Shown here in pieces: positions 4,519 through 20,000 of a stretch of DNA of 20,000 bases; positions within the stretch are counted from its first letter, which is position 1, and every line of letters begins with the position of its first letter. A program made the translations under genes and the position numbers. The notes under the pieces are model-generated. The model was not told where the DNA came from, did not search any database, and saw only the letters and a list, made by a program, of their open reading frames with translations. The DNA lies in IMG/VR virus record IMGVR_UViG_3300032241_001451. One strand, given 5' to 3'. The stretch is from an uncultured virus (IMG/VR IMGVR_UViG_3300032241_001451) (taxonomy: Duplodnaviria > Heunggongvirae > Uroviricota > Caudoviricetes).

Positions 4519-4867
4519 ACAAGAAGATTTCTATCACGGTTCCACAGCACACTTTAAGCCAGGAGATGTCATCCAGTCACCTGCTGCTCGTGGATTACCA
4601 AACCCACGACCAAGCAATCCTTTATATCACCATGACCGTGTTTATGTGACACCATTGCATCTAATCACCGCTCGCATATATGCACACGGACCAGAAGACA
4701 CATCAGATACTGGTCCATCAGGCCACATCTACAAAGTGAAGCCAGTAGGTCAGAAGCGTCACGATAAAGAAGTTAAGTGGGGCATGAAGGGCATCTCTTA
4801 CCACTTCCGTGAGGCAGTCGTTCTGAGCAAGCACCATCCAGATACAATGGAGGAGATTAAAGAATGA
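4511..4867 (+). CDS. Arr-like (rifampin ADP-ribosyltransferase fold) ADP-ribosyltransferase
   Basis: FYHGS...FKPGDVIQSP...VYVT...ARIYA...GHIYKVKPVG parallels the Arr family pattern FYHGT...GD.L.PG...YFT...IY.VEP.G. Confidence 0.7.
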   Translation: MPRQEDFYHGSTAHFKPGDVIQSPAARGLPNPRPSNPLYHHDRVYVTPLHLITARIYAHGPEDTSDTGPSGHIYKVKPVGQKRHDKEVKWGMKGISYHFREAVVLSKHHPDTMEEIKE

Positions 4868-5136
4868 CATTGCCATCCAAGAAGAAAAAAGTGTACGGGC
4901 CGTACAAAGATAAAAACAAGGGCGGACGCACAATGATGGTCGAGTACGACCCTAAGACTCAAAAGACCACATCGACTCATGAGGCACGTTACAAGAAGGA
5001 AAAGTCGCTGGGGCGCACACTCAAGAAAGATGAGCACGTCGACCACAAAGACAATAACAAACATAACAATGGTTCGAAGAACCTCCAGGTGATGAAGGCG
5101 TCTAAAAATATTGGCAAAGGTAACAAGAACCGATGA
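4864..5136 (+). CDS. small HNH-motif protein
   Basis: LGRTLKKDEHVDHKDNNKHNNGSKNLQVM is an HNH signature. Confidence 0.8.
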   Translation: MTLPSKKKKVYGPYKDKNKGGRTMMVEYDPKTQKTTSTHEARYKKEKSLGRTLKKDEHVDHKDNNKHNNGSKNLQVMKASKNIGKGNKNR

Positions 5137-6813: not shown

Positions 6814-7321
6814 GGACTGGCGCAAACTCTGCGACGGGATGTAGCAGTGATTGTGGAACATACACGTTCCCATTGTCGTCTTGTTCAAAGACTCCTTCAC
6901 GTGCATCACGTATCTTGATAGCACCTAGTAGATAGACAATGTTTTCATTCTTCTCATCTACGCAGCCAAGTACTGCCACTTTGTTAATGGCATCTGTATT
7001 ACGAATAGTTAACTGCCCTTTTGTTGTTCTGGCACGTCTTACCTCAAAGTATGGTTCAACATCTGGTAATCCCTTATGTTCGCCATGTTCTGCAAGGTCC
7101 CAATCTTCACTGTTCCATTGAGTTCCATAGTAAGTGGCAACTGCACACTCAACTAAGCAACCCTTAATGTCACCATCAAATGCGGTGTCATAGGCTGTAA
7201 AGCGATGAGTAGAGAAGCGCTCCCCTGTAATTGGGTCACGATGGCGCCATTGGCGTTTAATACCTGCTGTATAGGCTCTAATCATTTGTGATTCGGTTAG
7301 TTTAATTATTTCCATCTTCAT
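6806..7321 (-). CDS. PD-(D/E)XK-like phage protein, paralog 3
   Basis: GCLVECAVA...PDVEPYFEVRR...VLG...LLGA...YVPQSLLHP. Confidence 0.7.
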   Translation of the reverse strand: MKMEIIKLTESQMIRAYTAGIKRQWRHRDPITGERFSTHRFTAYDTAFDGDIKGCLVECAVATYYGTQWNSEDWDLAEHGEHKGLPDVEPYFEVRRARTTKGQLTIRNTDAINKVAVLGCVDEKNENIVYLLGAIKIRDAREGVFEQDDNGNVYVPQSLLHPVAEFAPVHA

Positions 7322-7772
7322 ACTCCATATCGTTTAATTCTCCAGTTACGTATTTAACACGCCAACTATTTTGCTGATGAGATGTTAACCGCCTGTGGCA
7401 ATTGCAACATCTTACTTCGCCCTTTGTTAATTCTTCTTTTATTCTTTCTATAGATACTGCATCTCGTATGGCTTCATTTAAGCCAAACTCCTTGCCTATT
7501 ACATGGTCAAACTCTAGGACCAGAATATCATCTTCCCCACAATCTACACAAGGATTGGAGGAGTAAAAGTCACCTAAAAACTGATGAATAGATTTTTTTC
7601 TTATTTTGCGATTTTTATAGATATTGGCCTGTGTATCTAAACGAGTATCTTCATAAAACTCTCGTTGATACTCACCTTGACAAGGTTTGCAATATGGCTG
7701 AACGCCAGATTCCCTCTTCTTATTAAACTCAGTTAGAGGTTTTTCTATCTTGCATCTGTTGCATGTCTTCAT
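7302..7772 (-). CDS. HNH-type (homing) endonuclease with an N-terminal zinc finger
   Basis: MKTCNRCKIEKPLTEF...CKPC...CVDCGE...LEFDHV...CCNCHR; start reassigned to ATG 7772. Confidence 0.85.
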   Translation of the reverse strand: MKTCNRCKIEKPLTEFNKKRESGVQPYCKPCQGEYQREFYEDTRLDTQANIYKNRKIRKKSIHQFLGDFYSSNPCVDCGEDDILVLEFDHVIGKEFGLNEAIRDAVSIERIKEELTKGEVRCCNCHRRLTSHQQNSWRVKYVTGELNDMEYEDGNN

Positions 7773-7911
7773 GGTCTGTCTTTCTCTCGGTATAGGAGCC
7801 CCTATGCTTCTGCTCACAATACCTTGCCATGGACGCAACGACAAATCCTGTCCCACACACGGAACAGTAGTAGTCTTTCCAGCGAGTATCTATGACACAT
7901 ATTATGCACAT
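7729..7911 (-). CDS. small zinc-finger protein (CSVCG...FVVASMARYCEQKH); start uncertain
   Basis: CxxC...CExxH pattern; first gene of the minus-strand block. Confidence 0.55.
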   Translation of the reverse strand: MCIICVIDTRWKDYYCSVCGTGFVVASMARYCEQKHRGSYTERKTDHEDMQQMQDRKTSN

Positions 7912-9258: not shown

Positions 9259-9534
9259 ATGAATGTCTCTAATTGGCTTCAAGCAATTTCCGCTGCTATA
9301 GGAATCGTTGGAGGTATTGGTATTTCCTTGCGTTGGATTGTTAAGCATTATCTAAATGAGTTAAAGCCAAATCACGGTACGTCATTAAATGACAAAATTG
9401 TTTTAGAAATTATTCCTTTACTTAAGAAATTAGACCGTCGTCAAGATGAAATTCGAGAAGACGTTACAGAAGTAAAAGTTGCTCAAGCACGCCTAGAAGG
9501 AAGATTCGAGCAACACTTAGACGAAGGAGAATAA
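9259..9534 (+). CDS. single-TM plus coiled-coil membrane protein (lysis-region type)
   Basis: GAGGA SD; N-terminal TM segment, LKPNHGTSL.D, C-terminal coiled coil. Confidence 0.75.
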   Translation: MNVSNWLQAISAAIGIVGGIGISLRWIVKHYLNELKPNHGTSLNDKIVLEIIPLLKKLDRRQDEIREDVTEVKVAQARLEGRFEQHLDEGE

Positions 9535-9968
9535 TGACAGAGGCTCATTCTGAGCACCTTGCTATTCACCTTATAACAAATGTTCCTGAACACTCTCCAA
9601 GAGAGTCAGACTCTTATTACCATTTGTTTAACCAAGCAAAGGCTCGAATTAAACGCCAAGGTCTTTGGCAATGTGTGATTAATGATGACCTATGTTCAGG
9701 TCAACCAGAGTTACACCATACCCACGTTGAATTTTCTCAAATTAACAATGTTGACCCTGAAAGGGTTGCAAAGTATTTTGGTCTTAATTTTGACAATGAT
9801 GAAGATTTTCAAAGATGGATTGAAAGCCCAGGAAACTTAGAAGTGCTATGTACTGCACATCACAGAACACATTTTGGTATTCATTCAATACCATCCCCAT
9901 TGTGGGAGTCATTGCGTTTTCGTAAAAGAGGGACACTACCAGCAGCGGAGGTACAGAAAAATGTATGA
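9534..9968 (+). CDS. HNH-like protein
   Basis: C...C...ELHH...NLEVLCTAHHR...GIH; AAGGAG SD. Confidence 0.65.
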   Translation: MTEAHSEHLAIHLITNVPEHSPRESDSYYHLFNQAKARIKRQGLWQCVINDDLCSGQPELHHTHVEFSQINNVDPERVAKYFGLNFDNDEDFQRWIESPGNLEVLCTAHHRTHFGIHSIPSPLWESLRFRKRGTLPAAEVQKNV

Positions 9969-13226: not shown

Positions 13227-13460
13227 ATGCCCCTAATTCGCAAGTTCGCCAAGCAGGGTCATGCTGTACCATCGGTAGCGCACAGCCCTAGAGGACCGTT
13301 TCCACCAGAAGTTCTAGCCCAACCTTTGATGGAACACGACGAACATCACTCGGATTCCTTACACGTTGGATTGGACAATGTACGTTTCTTCAAATGTCGA
13401 GATTGTGAAGAAATTCTTCTAGAAACCGAGTTAGACCAACATGAATGTGAGGAAATATAA
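13227..13460 (+). CDS. hypothetical protein with a C-terminal CxxC...HxC motif
   Basis: FKCRDCEE...HEC; tight gene packing. Confidence 0.75.
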   Translation: MPLIRKFAKQGHAVPSVAHSPRGPFPPEVLAQPLMEHDEHHSDSLHVGLDNVRFFKCRDCEEILLETELDQHECEEI

Positions 13461-14218
13461 TGCCACTAGATGACCGTGGTAATCCACAAATTGATTTTGT
13501 ATACGGCAATATCCCTATGCAACCAAACTATGCAACAGATGCAATGGCGGAGTTTCGTCGTGGAGAAGGCTACTATCCAGGTAATGGTGAGTCCGAATAC
13601 TACGTTGATGGACACGCCACTGTTTCAGACTGGGGAGACCCAACATACTTCCCCGCTGACTATCTAAAGCCATCCCAATACCTTGATGGTCACGACAGCC
13701 ATGTTATTGATTTACGTCAATGGAACAACTTTCCTCAACATGACCCAAATACTGGATTCCAAAGCACTGTTAACTGGTGGCTTGACGGAGTTCCTGCAAC
13801 TCAATTTCCAAACCTTATGGGAAAAAAACTAGAAGATGCAATTAAATCTTTACGCGAAGTTGGAGTTGCAGAAAACTTTTTGCAAGACACATTAACTGAC
13901 GCTACAAATCCTTATGATTCTGGGACTTGGTTGCCAACTAGCGGTGCTGTTATTTGGAAGTACCTTGCACCAGACACAGTAATCGGAACTCATTGGGATG
14001 GAAGAGATTGGCTTGCGTCTGAAGCAGAAGGCCTTGTAGTAGATGCAAACCAGTATCCAGGAAATGTGGTTCCTATTGGTTCTTACTGGTATGACGGAAC
14101 AAACTATTACAACTCTTCTGACCCAACTCAAGAAGGTCTTGCATTCCCTTATTGGTTATCATTTGCAGTACTACAAACAAAAGACCCTCTTAAAAACTCA
14201 TGGAATTGGTGGAACTAA
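13460..14218 (+). CDS. PASTA-like domain protein, paralog A
   Basis: N-terminal DDRGNPQIDFVYGNIPMQPN shared with 14430; FPNLMGKKLEDAIKSLREVG...GLVV...PGNVVPIG. Confidence 0.7.
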   Translation: MPLDDRGNPQIDFVYGNIPMQPNYATDAMAEFRRGEGYYPGNGESEYYVDGHATVSDWGDPTYFPADYLKPSQYLDGHDSHVIDLRQWNNFPQHDPNTGFQSTVNWWLDGVPATQFPNLMGKKLEDAIKSLREVGVAENFLQDTLTDATNPYDSGTWLPTSGAVIWKYLAPDTVIGTHWDGRDWLASEAEGLVVDANQYPGNVVPIGSYWYDGTNYYNSSDPTQEGLAFPYWLSFAVLQTKDPLKNSWNWWN

Positions 14219-14220
14219 TC

Positions 14221-14379
14221 ATGGCTAAAAATTATGAAGTAAAGTGCAAGTGTGGATTAAAAGACGTTGTTGAAGCGGGTCTTCAAGACGCACTTAAGCG
14301 TTGCCCAGATTGCAAAGACCTTCCTATTCAGCGTGTGAAGTTGGCTGCTGAAGCATCCACTTCTTGGGCAAAGAAATAG
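14221..14379 (+). CDS. small zinc-ribbon protein, 52 aa (MAKNYEVKCKCG...RCPDC)
   Basis: Manual translation; starts 2 nt after the upstream stop. Confidence 0.7.
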   Translation: MAKNYEVKCKCGLKDVVEAGLQDALKRCPDCKDLPIQRVKLAAEASTSWAKK

Positions 14380-14382
14380 TAT

Positions 14383-14405
14383 TCCCTTAGACGTAAGGGA
14401 TTTTT
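14383..14405 (+). terminator. intrinsic terminator candidate
   Basis: TCCCTTA-GACG-TAAGGGA followed by TTTTT. Confidence 0.65.
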
Positions 14406-14429
14406 ACACTCTCTAGAGAAAGAAGAAAA

Positions 14430-14861
14430 ATGGCAACCAATCAAGATGGTCATCTAGTCGATGACAAAGGAAATGTTGCGGTTGATTTTGTGTGGGGAAA
14501 CCTTCCACTTCAACCTAACGATATTCGCCGCGACAATGGCGGAGCAAATCTAGATTACACACTAGATAACCACAATATTGTAGAAGATGGCTGGAATGGC
14601 TATCCTCTTTATACACCAAATACAACAGGAACACAGTCTGGTGGCGTTGATTACGTCAATGTTCCAAATGTACTTGGTCAACTTCTTGCTGATGCAAGAA
14701 ACACACTTGTTGATTTTGAACTTGTAGTTGGTACTACAACAACAACTGCAACAGGAGCAACAGCAGATAATACTGGTACAGTTCAGACTCAATCAGTTGC
14801 TTCTGGAACAAGCGTTGCAGTAGGAACTACTGTAAATCTTGTTACATACCTTTACTCATAA
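14430..14861 (+). CDS. PASTA-domain protein, paralog B
   Basis: DDKGNVAVDFVWGNLPLQPN; VPNVLGQLLADARNTL...GTVQTQSVASGTSVAVGTTVNL. Confidence 0.8.
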   Translation: MATNQDGHLVDDKGNVAVDFVWGNLPLQPNDIRRDNGGANLDYTLDNHNIVEDGWNGYPLYTPNTTGTQSGGVDYVNVPNVLGQLLADARNTLVDFELVVGTTTTTATGATADNTGTVQTQSVASGTSVAVGTTVNLVTYLYS

Positions 14862-16253: not shown

Positions 16254-17837
16254 ATGGAAAACTATAACGAAGAAAAATTTGAAGAGATAAACCCCGAATT
16301 TTATCTTCAAGATGAGACACCTGTTGAAGAAGAGGTTATCAATGACCTGGATGAACTTTCTCAAGATTTTGTAAATAAACTTATAGATAAGATTATGGAC
16401 TTTCTTGTAGTCCTAGTTGGTCATGACTTGCACCCTTATCAAAAACCTTTAGCACGTCGCATTATTGAGTCTGTCGTCATTAACGATGGTGAAGAAATTA
16501 CAGCCCTTGCTTCCCGTCAGTCAGGTAAATCTGAAACAGTGGCAGATACAGTAGCGACATTGATGGTTCTTTTACCTCGGCTTGCTAAGTTATACCCAGA
16601 CCTTCTTGGAAAATTTAAAGATGGTTTATGGGTCGGGTTGTTTGCTCCAACAGAAGGACAGGCTGAAACTTTATTTGGGCGTACCGTCACACGTCTTACA
16701 TCTGAGCGTGCTATTGAGATTATGGATGACCCAGAGATTGATGATAGCGCTGCACGTGTAGGTGGAGTTACTCGTCAAATTAAACTTAAGAAATCTGGTT
16801 CTACTATTACGATGATGACTGCAAACCCTCGTGCAAAAATTGAATCTAAGTCTTTCCATGTTGTTGTTATTGATGAGTGTCAAGAAGCAGATGACTTTGT
16901 TGTGTCTAAGTCAATCTCACCTATGCTTGCTTATTATGCTGGAACAATGGTTAAAACAGGTACTCCTACAACCAGTAAGAATAACTTCTATAGAAGTATC
17001 CAACTTAACCGTAGACGCCAAACTGCACGTGGTGCACGTCAAAACCATTTTCAATGGGATTGGAAAGATGTAGCAAAAGTTCAAGCAAATTACGAAAAGT
17101 TCATACGTAAAGAGATGCTTCGTATTGGTGAAGACTCTGACGAGTTTCAGATGTCGTATAACTGTAAGTGGTTGTTGGAACGTGGAATGTTTGTTACTTC
17201 AACAATCATGGATGAACTTGGAGATACCTCTCAAGAAATTGTTAAAGCCTGGCATAAAACTCCAGTAGTAGTTGGCGTTGACCCAGCACGTAAGACTGAC
17301 TCAACAGTAGTAACTGTTGTGTGGGTAGATTGGGATAGACCAGATGAGTTTGGGTATTTTGACCACCGTGTCTTGAATTGGCTAGAAATTCAAGGAGACG
17401 ATTGGGAAGAGCAGTACTTTCAAATTGTTAACTTCTTAGAAAATTATGATGTCCTTGCCGTAGGCGTAGACGCTAACGGTGTGGGCGATGCTGTAGCGCA
17501 AAGATTAAAACTTCTCTTGCCACGTGCTGAGGTAAGTTCAATTACTTCTAGCCCATCAGAGCAATCTAAGAGATGGAAGCACCTACAAGCCCTTATTCAA
17601 CGCAAAATGATTAGTTGGCCTGCTCATGCAAAAACTCGGCGCCTTCGTACTTTCAAAAGGTTTTATCAACAAATGGTTGATGCCGAAGTTACATTTAAAG
17701 GGCCAAATTTCCTTGTAGCGGCTCCTGAAGAAACATATGCCCATGATGACTTTGTAGATTCACTTTCTATTGCTTGTAGCCTTACCCAAAACCTAGTAAT
17801 GCCAGAAGTAGTGGCTTCTAGTAATCCCTTCTTTTAA
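16254..17837 (+). CDS. terL: terminase large subunit
   Basis: Walker A ASRQSGKSE, Walker B VVVIDECQE, coupling motif TGTP, RNase H-like GVDPAR...HDDFVDS; upstream of the portal. Confidence 0.95.
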   Translation: MENYNEEKFEEINPEFYLQDETPVEEEVINDLDELSQDFVNKLIDKIMDFLVVLVGHDLHPYQKPLARRIIESVVINDGEEITALASRQSGKSETVADTVATLMVLLPRLAKLYPDLLGKFKDGLWVGLFAPTEGQAETLFGRTVTRLTSERAIEIMDDPEIDDSAARVGGVTRQIKLKKSGSTITMMTANPRAKIESKSFHVVVIDECQEADDFVVSKSISPMLAYYAGTMVKTGTPTTSKNNFYRSIQLNRRRQTARGARQNHFQWDWKDVAKVQANYEKFIRKEMLRIGEDSDEFQMSYNCKWLLERGMFVTSTIMDELGDTSQEIVKAWHKTPVVVGVDPARKTDSTVVTVVWVDWDRPDEFGYFDHRVLNWLEIQGDDWEEQYFQIVNFLENYDVLAVGVDANGVGDAVAQRLKLLLPRAEVSSITSSPSEQSKRWKHLQALIQRKMISWPAHAKTRRLRTFKRFYQQMVDAEVTFKGPNFLVAAPEETYAHDDFVDSLSIACSLTQNLVMPEVVASSNPFF

Positions 17838-18312: not shown

Positions 18313-18330
18313 TTTAAAAAGACACTCCTA

Positions 18331-18354
18331 TGCCCCTACACTAGTGTGGGGGCA
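18331..18354 (+). other. strong intergenic hairpin
   Basis: TGCCCCTACA-CTAG-TGTGGGGGCA; no U-tract. Confidence 0.6.
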
Positions 18355-18378
18355 ATAGGGTATGGAGAGGAGTAATAC

Positions 18379-18630
18379 ATGGCAAGCAAACCAGCCAACC
18401 CAAAGATGTGGGCGATGATTATTGCGCAAGCAAAAGCCAAATACTCCAATTACCCAAATCCAGGTGCATCACATTGGGTACATAAAACGTATGTTGAACA
18501 TGGCGGTCGCTTTATTGAAACAACAGAAGCAGACCGTCGCAAAGGTATTGAAAAGAAGAAGGCAGAACGTAAGAAGACTAAAGAGTCTGTTACCGATAAG
18601 AAGCCTTCTAAGAAAGATAAGAAGAAGTAA
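18379..18630 (+). CDS. small basic phage protein
   Basis: GAGGAG SD; NPKMW...AKAKY..YP...WV...Y...GG.F; Lys-rich tail. Confidence 0.8.
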   Translation: MASKPANPKMWAMIIAQAKAKYSNYPNPGASHWVHKTYVEHGGRFIETTEADRRKGIEKKKAERKKTKESVTDKKPSKKDKKK

Positions 18631-18737
18631 TGACCACTGCTAGTATTACAGGAATTAAGACCTGTTCTAAGTGTGGCATTGAAAAACCTTTAAATGGGGT
18701 TTGTAACCTCCATAAGATTAAGGAGGTGATGCCATGA
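18630..18737 (+). pseudogene. collapsed HNH/homing endonuclease remnant, 35 aa (MTTASITGIKTCSKCGIEKPLNGVCNLHKIKEVMP)
   Basis: KTCSKCGIEKPL matches the N-terminus KTCNRCKIEKPL of the HNH at 7302..7772 and is fused to a CNxxK C-terminal piece; TAATG and ATGA couplings are intact. Confidence 0.65.
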
Positions 18738-20000
18738 GTTTCCTAGATTTTTCTCCGCCCTCTTATAGAGCGGCGTCTTCTGATTTAACAATTTCTATTT
18801 CCCCACTGGGGTTAGTTGAATTAGCAGACGAGGAATTCGAATGAAGTCCATGGTCCTCGCCTAAACCGTTATTCACTTAATTGGGCGATGTACTTGGGAC
18901 ACCATTGGGGTTATCGTAGAGAAACTGGCGAAATGCAAATCGCACTTAACTACTACCGTGCATTTAATGACTTCTTAGCACGCTTTACTTTTGGTAAAGG
19001 CGTGCATTTTCGTTCGCCAAAAGCAACGGAAGCAATTGTTCCTGACCGCTTAGAGCGTGTGTGGGAAGTTGATAATGACAAGATGCGTGTGCTACTTGAA
19101 ATGGCACAGCAAGGCGGAATTACTGGCGATGTATTTGTTAAAGTTGCATACGAAGAGCCATGGGTAGATTCAGCAGGAGGAAAACATCCTGGTCGTGTTC
19201 GTATCCTTCCTATGAACTCATCATTTTGTTTCCCTGAGTTTCACCCACACGACCGTACACGTCTACTTCGTTTTAAGCAGAAGTATCGTTTCTGGGGAAC
19301 TTCTCTTGAAGGAACGCGCCAAGTATTCACGTATACTGAGATTCTTACTGACGATGTTATTGAAGAATACATTAACGATGAGTTGATTGACTCACGCCCA
19401 AATCCACTTGGAGTAGTTCCAGTGGTGCATATTCCTAATGTGCCTGTATCAGGCTCACCATGGGGACTAGCAGATGCACATGACATCATTACTATTAACC
19501 GTGCTTACAATGAAATCTCTACAGATATAGCAGACATCATTAACTATCACGCTTCTCCTGTGACAGTTATTATCGGTGCTAAAGCATCTAACCTTGAAAA
19601 GGGCGCCAAGAAAGTATGGGGCGGTCTTCCAAAGGATTCACAAGTATTTAACCTTGAAGGTGGAGCATCAGGAATTGATGGAGCGCTTAAATATTTAGAC
19701 CTTCTTAAGACGTCTATGCACGAGATTATGAACATCCCAGAGACTGCTCTTGGACAAGTTCAGCCAATTTCAAATACCTCTGGTGTTGCTCTTTCTATTC
19801 AGTATCAGCCATTGATGAACCGCTACAGTCAAAAGGTTGCTCAATACGGTAAAGGCATTGAGAAGATTAACGAACTCGTACTTCGTACTCTTGCCTTCAA
19901 AGAGCCAGATACTTTCTTATACAACCCAGATACAGATGGACCAATTAAGCCAGGTCAGTTGACACAACTTGACCCTAATGACTCTATCACCTACATGAAC
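18734..20000 (+). CDS. portal protein (partial); frame interrupted at 18842
   Basis: AGGAGGTGA SD and ATG 18734 give 36 codons (MSFLDFSPPSY...LADEEFE) then TGA. A second frame is open from 18825 to the window end (EVHGPRLNRY...NPLGVVPVVHIPN...SPWG...SNTSGVAL), with SPP1 gp6-like portal motifs. It follows terL. Confidence 0.85.

Follow-up and report, generated by a model that had tools for sequence, protein, structure and literature searches.

The portal gene at the end of the DNA analyzed here (20,000 nucleotides from an uncultured virus, hereafter called the window) stops after 36 codons at 18842-18844 and resumes in the +1 frame from 18846, directly downstream of the remains of an HNH endonuclease gene. 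We consider it highly probable that this arrangement is a decayed homing cassette, and likely, judging from the pattern of inserts among related alleles, that ribosomes cross the gap by hopping. The complete model, in which the insert also makes the gene immune to the nuclease, appears reasonably likely.

Genes at this end of the window are ordered as terminase gene, two small genes, a 35-codon open reading frame (ORF) and the interrupted portal gene. The features relevant to our argument are as follows.

16254..17837, + strand: terminase large subunit (Pfam Terminase_6N and 6C above cut-off; PHROG 2)
18379..18630, + strand: 83-aa lysine-rich gene, left boundary of the cassette, which abuts the portal start in empty alleles
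18630..18737, + strand: collapsed type-A HNH endonuclease gene, 35 aa, aligned to the intact 213-aa gene of locus L002
18697..18698, + strand: junction of a 534-nt deletion, from the alignment (joint 'skips 534' in run X1)
18720..18730, + strand: very strong portal Shine-Dalgarno (SD) site in the nuclease tail (anti-SD duplex -17.7 kcal/mol)
18734..18841, + strand: portal codons 1-36, imported 5′ tract (from identity to type-A alleles and from trees)
18830..18834, + strand: internal SD-like GAGGA, a candidate stimulator, 4 nt before take-off and 8 nt before landing
18839..18841, + strand: proposed take-off codon GAA (Glu36)
18842..18845, + strand: 4-nt insert TGAA, in which the stop TGA overlaps the matching landing codon GAA (18843-18845)
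18846..20000, + strand: portal body, which begins at Val37 and extends past the end of the window (Pfam SPP1_portal, E 5.5e-22)

The portal body is collinear with uninterrupted relatives, and no SD precedes its first in-frame ATG, at 18888. The nearest annotated portals (58% identity over 300 aa) are those of phages BRock, GiJojo, LuckySocke, Alone3 and pSt2308, and because these are Streptomyces phages the host is probably an actinobacterium. The N-terminus of the GiJojo portal is homologous and unbroken, and no nuclease is annotated upstream of it. Two neighboring genes at 13460-14861 have a common N-terminal motif and PASTA-like domains, which fit with a Gram-positive host; most sequencing runs containing the stretch are labeled freshwater.

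The 83-aa gene lies within 20 nt of the portal ATG in 189 of the 195 uninterrupted loci among the matches listed; the remaining six have too little upstream DNA or give no motif match, yet the TAATG overlap is present. A pair of alleles with and without the nuclease gene (filled L104 and empty L004) likewise places the left edge of the cassette at this gene. An inverted repeat at 18325-18362, which separates the 131-aa gene from the 83-aa gene, is alike in L003 and L045 and is possibly a regulatory hairpin. PHROG comparison points to further HNH-like genes in the window at 7305-7856 (- strand), 4864-5136 (+ strand) and 9534-9968 (+ strand). The first of these precedes a phrog_18407 gene, a second copy of which is present at 1927-2475. 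A coarse cross-comparison screen revealed no gaps in the neighbors of these three genes.

The 35-codon ORF is a collapsed nuclease gene

An earlier reading of the window, made from its sequence alone, proposed that the 35-codon ORF is the zinc-finger start of an HNH nuclease joined to a C-terminal scrap. Alignment to the intact gene of L002 confirms this: the zinc-finger start is joined in frame to the last 12 codons of the nuclease by a single 534-nt in-frame deletion, accompanied by four substitutions. For the junction region (18690-18705), it is equally parsimonious to assume that 535 nt were deleted at a 4-nt microhomology and that the gain of a single G restored the frame. The portal allele of the window, including the TGAA insert, is also found in four loci (L001, L002, L102 and L230), where the 213-aa gene occupies the position of the ORF. 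The intact nuclease matches Pfam HNH and HNH_5 (PF01844, PF14279) above cut-off, a result that holds for both P0001 and P0002. There are four substitutions in the remaining 103 nt of the ORF versus nine in 1563 nt of flank (p 0.006), which fits relaxed selection. The possibility that the 35-aa ORF is conserved as an independent zinc-finger family is ruled out by the same alignment, wherein it is the deletion product of a full HNH gene.

The deletion joint was found in one (X1) of the four runs examined and in no other locus. In X1, possibly the run from which the window derives, it is carried by a contig of depth 31.3, beside which the intact gene is present in a depth-4 contig, and runs X2 and X4 carry the intact gene. 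Contigs of X1, X2 and X4 span the insert gap-free, and X9 has no cover there. Because the same insert is found in several assemblies and three runs, an assembly slip is ruled out.

The ORF shares bases with the 83-aa gene's stop (TAATG) and with the portal start (ATGA), in keeping with the translational coupling on both sides that had been described. The SD site of the portal falls within the last ORF codons, and thus the nuclease tail supplies it, again as first proposed.

Portal inserts co-occur with nuclease genes

After duplicates were merged, 313 loci yielded at least 139 distinct portal 5′ alleles, comprising 36 interrupted and at least 103 uninterrupted alleles; the scan for uninterrupted spacing gave at least 120 matches. 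A check suggested at the outset, whether an upstream HNH gene co-occurs with the portal gap, gave a clear answer. Of the 36 interrupted alleles, 33 are preceded by a nuclease gene or its remnant, as against none of the 103 uninterrupted alleles among the matches listed. The Fisher p for the association, 2e-25, overstates independence because the alleles are related by descent. The remnants in the window and L279 were recognized by alignment, not by script motifs. The uninterrupted set belongs almost wholly to the window's subfamily, and the interrupted alleles were mostly fetched by targeted patterns. In an unselected portal search, five of 80 loci were interrupted, and all five have a nuclease or remnant.

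From the opposite direction, no HNH match was found upstream of the 195 uninterrupted loci among the matches listed, and four nuclease-centered scans returned no nuclease-bearing allele that lacks an insert, with four loci ending before the site. The interrupted alleles without a nuclease (the L303 group, L301 and L314) are in a distant subfamily and have the strong SD only.

Furthermore, the insert site differs largely according to which of four nuclease types is present. All eight alleles with an intact type-A HNH gene (zinc-finger N-terminus) have an insert at codon 35-36 only, and all 13 with an intact type-B N-terminus have one at codons 52-54, three of them also at 35-36. An EndoVII-type gene (PF02945) pairs with codon 48 (L305, L310 and the remnant in L287), and a third HNH type (phrog_3377) pairs with codon 33 (L315). 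The pattern is broken by L297, a type-B-like remnant with a Glu36 insert only.

Other features of these nucleases were evident. Type-A and type-B nucleases of L101 and L235 versus L097 have near-identical C-terminal tails and portal 5′ tracts, which suggests that N-terminal DNA-binding domains have been swapped. W49F is common to the type-A alleles of the L085 group, the L087 group, L089 and L096, as are changes at residue 56. In the L085 nuclease the second Cys pair is short of three residues, and this enzyme may be inactive. Eight distant HNH matches (L260-L267) are located at other loci.

The portal 5′ tract travels with the nuclease

Portal codons 1-36 move with the nuclease rather than with the portal body, which bears out the proposal that the 5′ end of the window's portal is foreign. 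First, these codons are 91.7-95.4% identical to those of L085, L087, L089 and L096, whose bodies are only 76-80% identical to that of the window, and 99.1% identical to those of L103, which is elsewhere on the body tree. Conversely, L045, which has a type-B nuclease and a Tyr52 insert, matches the window at 82.4% in codons 1-36 and 99.2% in the body. Second, phylogenies of codons 1-36 and the remainder, a comparison also called for at the outset, disagree: on the 5′ tree the seven type-A Glu36 rows cluster together (93/71, few columns), and their grouping as a clade on the body tree is rejected (AU test, p-AU 3e-5). Represented in the trees are 22 of the 23 interrupted alleles then known (all but L084, which is too short) and, of the 73 uninterrupted loci of sufficient length, 35. 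Third, L104 and L004 have near-identical flanks, between which L104 has the HNH gene and mismatches are dense from codon 1 to ~56.

On the 57-row body tree, filled or empty status changes 11 times. An independent-pairs test found 10 independent filled/empty contrasts; this test only counts contrasts because the two traits coincided in all rows and so had identical labels. In L315 and L287, the nuclease or its remnant sits inside an old portal start, of which a relict of ~25-30 codons remains (in L315 fused in frame to the HNH gene), and a second 5′ end follows behind a strong SD. Replacement of the portal start is thus seen directly in these two alleles. Apparent intein-like sequences also occur among the loci compared, namely an insertion after the TRQVF motif in the L287 portal and stretches ending HN-C in the terminase frames of L246, L249 and L250.

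Codon usage had been offered as another sign of foreignness, and most of the counts stand: the first 36 codons include TTA three times, AGA once, CCG once, GCG twice and GGG once, and CTT (14), CGT (13) and GCA (13) lead in codons 37-330, where GGT (7) was also said to be preferred but is outnumbered by GGA (11). The interpretation does not stand. Because uninterrupted relatives among the matches listed show equal enrichment at the 5′ end versus the rest (AGA 0.68/0.10, GCG 0.31/0.08, CCG 0.30/0.07, TTA 0.28/0.18), this bias is not diagnostic.

The inserts follow a common grammar

The 36 interrupted alleles carry 22 insert types of 4-10 nt, located at codons 30, 33, 34, 35, 36, 48, 52 and 54, and five alleles have two inserts each. 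Five types are 4 nt long, three are 6 nt, seven are 7 nt, two are 8 nt, three are 9 nt and two are 10 nt, and these lengths span all three reading frames. With one exception (L315, AAA), every type opens with a stop codon. The ends of 12 types are cognate to the take-off codon (same tRNA), and the other 10 are one non-wobble mismatch away. Both 8-nt types, as well as TAAGTAG and TAATAA, come from one assembly each, and a further 1-nt slip is present in the contig with TAATAA. When net insertions of 1-30 nt were sought by pattern, three scans yielded 22, 11 and 50 matches, among which there were no in-frame insertions that consist of sense codons. The insert pattern had no matches in genome_contigs.

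The sequence-only reading had viewed the window's insert as a junction scar, formed when incoming TTC-GAA was joined to resident (TT)T-GAA. A one-off event of this kind accounts poorly for the related inserts (TAGTGAA, TAGTGTA, TAATAA and TGAA) that recur with the same 5′ tract. Since alleles of one tract carry related inserts, we conclude that the insert travels with the cassette.

Two candidate stimulatory elements accompany the inserts; because the alleles share ancestry, the counts that follow are not counts of independent origins. An internal SD is present in eight of the nine alleles with a Glu36 insert that were compared, and only three of the 103 uninterrupted alleles among the matches listed reach -3 kcal/mol. 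A hairpin that ends 1 nt 5′ of take-off is found in eight of 12 Tyr52 alleles and both Gly54 alleles, its register moved accordingly, and one of equal stability is found in none of the 103 uninterrupted alleles among the matches listed. This Tyr52/Gly54 hairpin is made of synonymous changes and is displaced along with the insert site. At the window's own site, RNA structure is not above background, as 64 of the 103 uninterrupted alleles among the matches listed are as stable.

The strong start SD outlasts the nuclease

The portal start SD reaches -12.3 kcal/mol or stronger in all 36 interrupted alleles, and none of the 103 uninterrupted alleles among the matches listed, which mostly start by overlapping the upstream stop, is stronger than -6.2. 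Collapsed nucleases were found in nine lineages (the window, L003, L087, L096, L279, L287, L293, L297 and L307). All nine keep the SD; of the eight whose mini-ORF could be classified, five keep it in frame and three do not. Hence the earlier suggestion that the nuclease decayed while its coupling signals were kept holds for the SD and only in part for the coupled mini-ORF. Since every collapse retained the SD and not every one the mini-ORF, we infer that selection keeps the SD and not the peptide. Perhaps the strong start SD offsets the loss of ribosomes at the gap.

How the gap may be read

Several observations bear on how interrupted portal genes are read. In 13 alleles with an insert at codons 35-36 (site 1), pairwise differences number 564 synonymous versus 36 non-synonymous in codons 37-50, and site-1 alleles have 1087 versus 0 in codons 5-33. 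Purifying selection therefore acts on both sides of the gap. The portal gene is essential to phages, and in the complete genomes G002 and G003 the interrupted portal is the sole copy. No suppressor tRNAs were found in the window or in G001, G002, G003 and G005, and the tRNAs of G004 (L347:6089-6862) are only tRNA-Leu(taa) and tRNA-Asn. A screen for other gapped genes in the window versus G001-G005 gave only shadow-frame matches while recovering the portal gaps as a positive control, with ORFs of at least 80 aa and at least 55% identity covered and small or unshared genes missed. Structural comparison added little, as no solved structures match the portal by sequence and single-sequence prediction of the uninterrupted portal reached a pLDDT of 32.

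These findings can be assembled into the following model, in which we infer cutting, immunity, hopping, stimulation and SD compensation from sequence patterns. A free-standing homing endonuclease gene would separate the 83-aa gene from the portal gene, and its product would cut or nick a conserved site within the first 55 portal codons of phages lacking the nuclease. Repair would then import the nuclease gene, the very strong SD and a synonymous portal 5′ end that closes in a 4-10-nt insert, which would spoil the nuclease recognition site. The insert would be non-coding because, as we propose, this region of the portal tolerates no extra residues. A ribosome stalled with a stop codon in the A site would release its peptidyl-tRNA from the take-off codon, and the tRNA would slide 4-10 nt and re-pair with a matched or near-matched codon, such that translation resumes past the insert and yields one full-length portal. 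The internal SD (at the window's Glu36 site) or the 5′ hairpin at take-off (at the Tyr52/Gly54 site) probably assists, and the strong start SD probably compensates for ribosome loss at the stop. After fixation, the nuclease would decay by deletion, and the SD and insert would stay.

Gaps that fall in three frames, open with a stop and end with a match are what peptidyl-tRNA hopping predicts. Counterpoints are the lack of a hairpin at the window site, the 10 imperfect landing codons among the 22 insert types, and the 14 types whose length (3n+1) also fits a +1 shift. The last of these favors an unlikely alternative that nonetheless survives better than the others, in which the cassette is the same, 3n+1 inserts are read by +1 frameshifting in the style of release factor 2 with help from the internal SD, and in-frame stops are read through to add one to three residues. 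The spacing of the SD in prfB is close to the 4 nt seen before the window's shift site, and each of the four non-cognate 4-nt inserts consists of a stop and a following C. However, a +1 shift in the window would place tRNA-Glu on AAU when 4 nt further there is a perfect GAA. The types that best exclude such a shift, each known from a single assembly, are TAAGTAG, which contains a stop in the +1 frame, the double stop TAATAA, and the two 3n+2 inserts. Readthrough would have no need of matched ends, yet four of the six in-frame types have them. In-frame insertions of sense codons did not turn up in the three pattern scans.

The hopping model might be correct and the insert still have no role in immunity. 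It could be a repair scar that hitch-hikes at the end of a conversion tract and is tolerated through basal stop-hops, and the many synonymous changes, rather than the insert, could protect the site. The end of the type-A tract does coincide with the insert or come just past it (beyond codon 36, identity drops from 92-95% to 72-79% for L085, L087, L089 and L096), and inserts change fast, as L103 carries a different one behind its nearly identical codons 1-36. We nevertheless regard a mere scar as rather improbable. As long as the nuclease is intact, a scar that carries a cost would be expected to revert. The four nuclease-centered scans described above found no nuclease-bearing allele without an insert, and the insert site follows the nuclease type. 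Moreover, in T4 the insert blocked nicking and polymorphisms alone did not, according to work cited in bioRxiv 10.1101/2022.08.31.505936.

If the gap were not crossed at all, the portal would be made in two pieces or N-terminally shortened, with a 36-aa peptide ending at the stop and the body restarting at Met51. All site-1-only alleles do have this in-frame ATG 14 codons past the gap, and genes split by MobA and MobE are on record (bioRxiv 10.1101/2022.08.31.505936). Met51 has no SD, however, and restart there leaves the strong purifying selection on codons 37-50 without a reason. Inserts at site 2 lie after Met51, and four such alleles (L239, L249, L250 and L268) have no further in-frame ATG until codon 207-317, some 150-260 codons on, with the next GTG at codon 111 or 128 in two of them. 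Added tails such as those of MobA splits are absent, and the GiJojo portal runs unbroken across the corresponding region. We therefore find restart very improbable.

That the interruption is a sequencing error or belongs to a defective phage is largely refuted and has next to no likelihood, for although all data are uncultured metagenomic contigs and the deletion allele comes from one run only, the same insert recurs across assemblies and runs, 22 types obey one grammar, the complete genomes have no other portal, and the portal body is under purifying selection.

Relation to known bypassing systems

The likeness to the T4 mobA/gene 60 cassette that prompted this analysis is supported by the nuclease-insert association, the mobile 5′ tract and the recurrent decay, and it is drawn from the published description (bioRxiv 10.1101/2022.08.31.505936) rather than from the MobA sequence. 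Common to both are an HNH nuclease with a nearby non-coding insert in an essential gene, a stop after take-off and matched take-off and landing codons (GAA/GAA in the window), a diverged imported stretch of the target gene, a swappable nuclease type, and an insert that is present in all nuclease-bearing phages and in some whose nuclease has decayed or been lost. The portal family also shows what characterizes free-standing homing endonucleases, namely sporadic presence, filled alongside empty alleles, and a flanking tract inherited together with the gene. The internal SD may or may not correspond to the T4 mini-SD, which lies 5-7 nt before landing: GAGGA in the window ends 8 nt before landing, and site 2 has none.

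The systems differ in several respects. The target is the portal here and topoisomerase in T4, and the gaps are 4-10 nt here versus 20-50 nt in the mobA/gene 60 class (50 nt in T4). The T4 cassette splits the topoisomerase gene and terminal extensions are added, whereas the portal is normally unsplit and has the nuclease upstream. Inserts in the portal family occupy at least seven positions, with up to two per gene, unlike those of T4. A take-off stem-loop with a stable tetraloop is a feature of T4 gene 60 and is absent from the window allele. The same preprint calls the mobA/gene 60 cassette unique and confined to Topo2L.

In other features, the portal gaps resemble the bypass found in the Streptomyces phage Hau3 terminase gene (PMC10732093), which also involves an actinophage packaging gene, gaps of 7-10 nt, two per gene, and a proposed 5′ SD and stem-loop as stimulators. 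The Hau3 trigger is a rare UUA codon, in contrast to the stops in 21 of our 22 types and AAA in the other, and that bypass has been read as regulatory in a main text that uses neither 'homing' nor 'HNH'. Synthetic 'stop hops' likewise have matched codons around a stop, and their decoding of nine nucleotides as one residue equals the 6-nt inserts of L287, L097 and L103; a 2016 review describes in-frame stop hopping from synthetic constructs only (PMC5009743). The byps of Magnusiomyces are unlike the portal gaps in their length (27-55 nt), unassigned sense codon and special mitochondrial ribosome (bioRxiv 10.1101/2022.08.31.505936). Our literature search found nothing on portal gaps or a portal-gap family; subscription papers and bioRxiv supplements were outside it, including the supplement of this preprint, which could bear on short gaps.

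Implications

Nuclease-linked bypassing has so far comprised one cassette in one gene, which the 2022 survey calls unique. We lean slightly toward the broader view that minimal bypassing by stop-hops is a recurrent immunity device of homing nucleases and that ordinary bacterial ribosomes cross such gaps efficiently. If so, at least four nuclease types independently wrote non-coding gaps of 4-10 nt into one essential virion gene, sometimes two per gene, some of them in frame and often with an imperfect landing codon. An internal SD or a 5′ hairpin would suffice as stimulator, with a near-perfect start SD as compensation, and the 50-nt gap of T4 would be the elaborate end of a common and mostly unannotated class.

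The family provides 22 natural gap variants of one gene and includes filled, empty, double and decayed alleles, a series well suited to asking how programmed bypassing originates, how short or mismatched a hop can be, and whether gaps serve to hide nuclease sites. Finally, because gene callers truncate interrupted portals, apparent 'frameshifts' in phage structural genes may be genuine.
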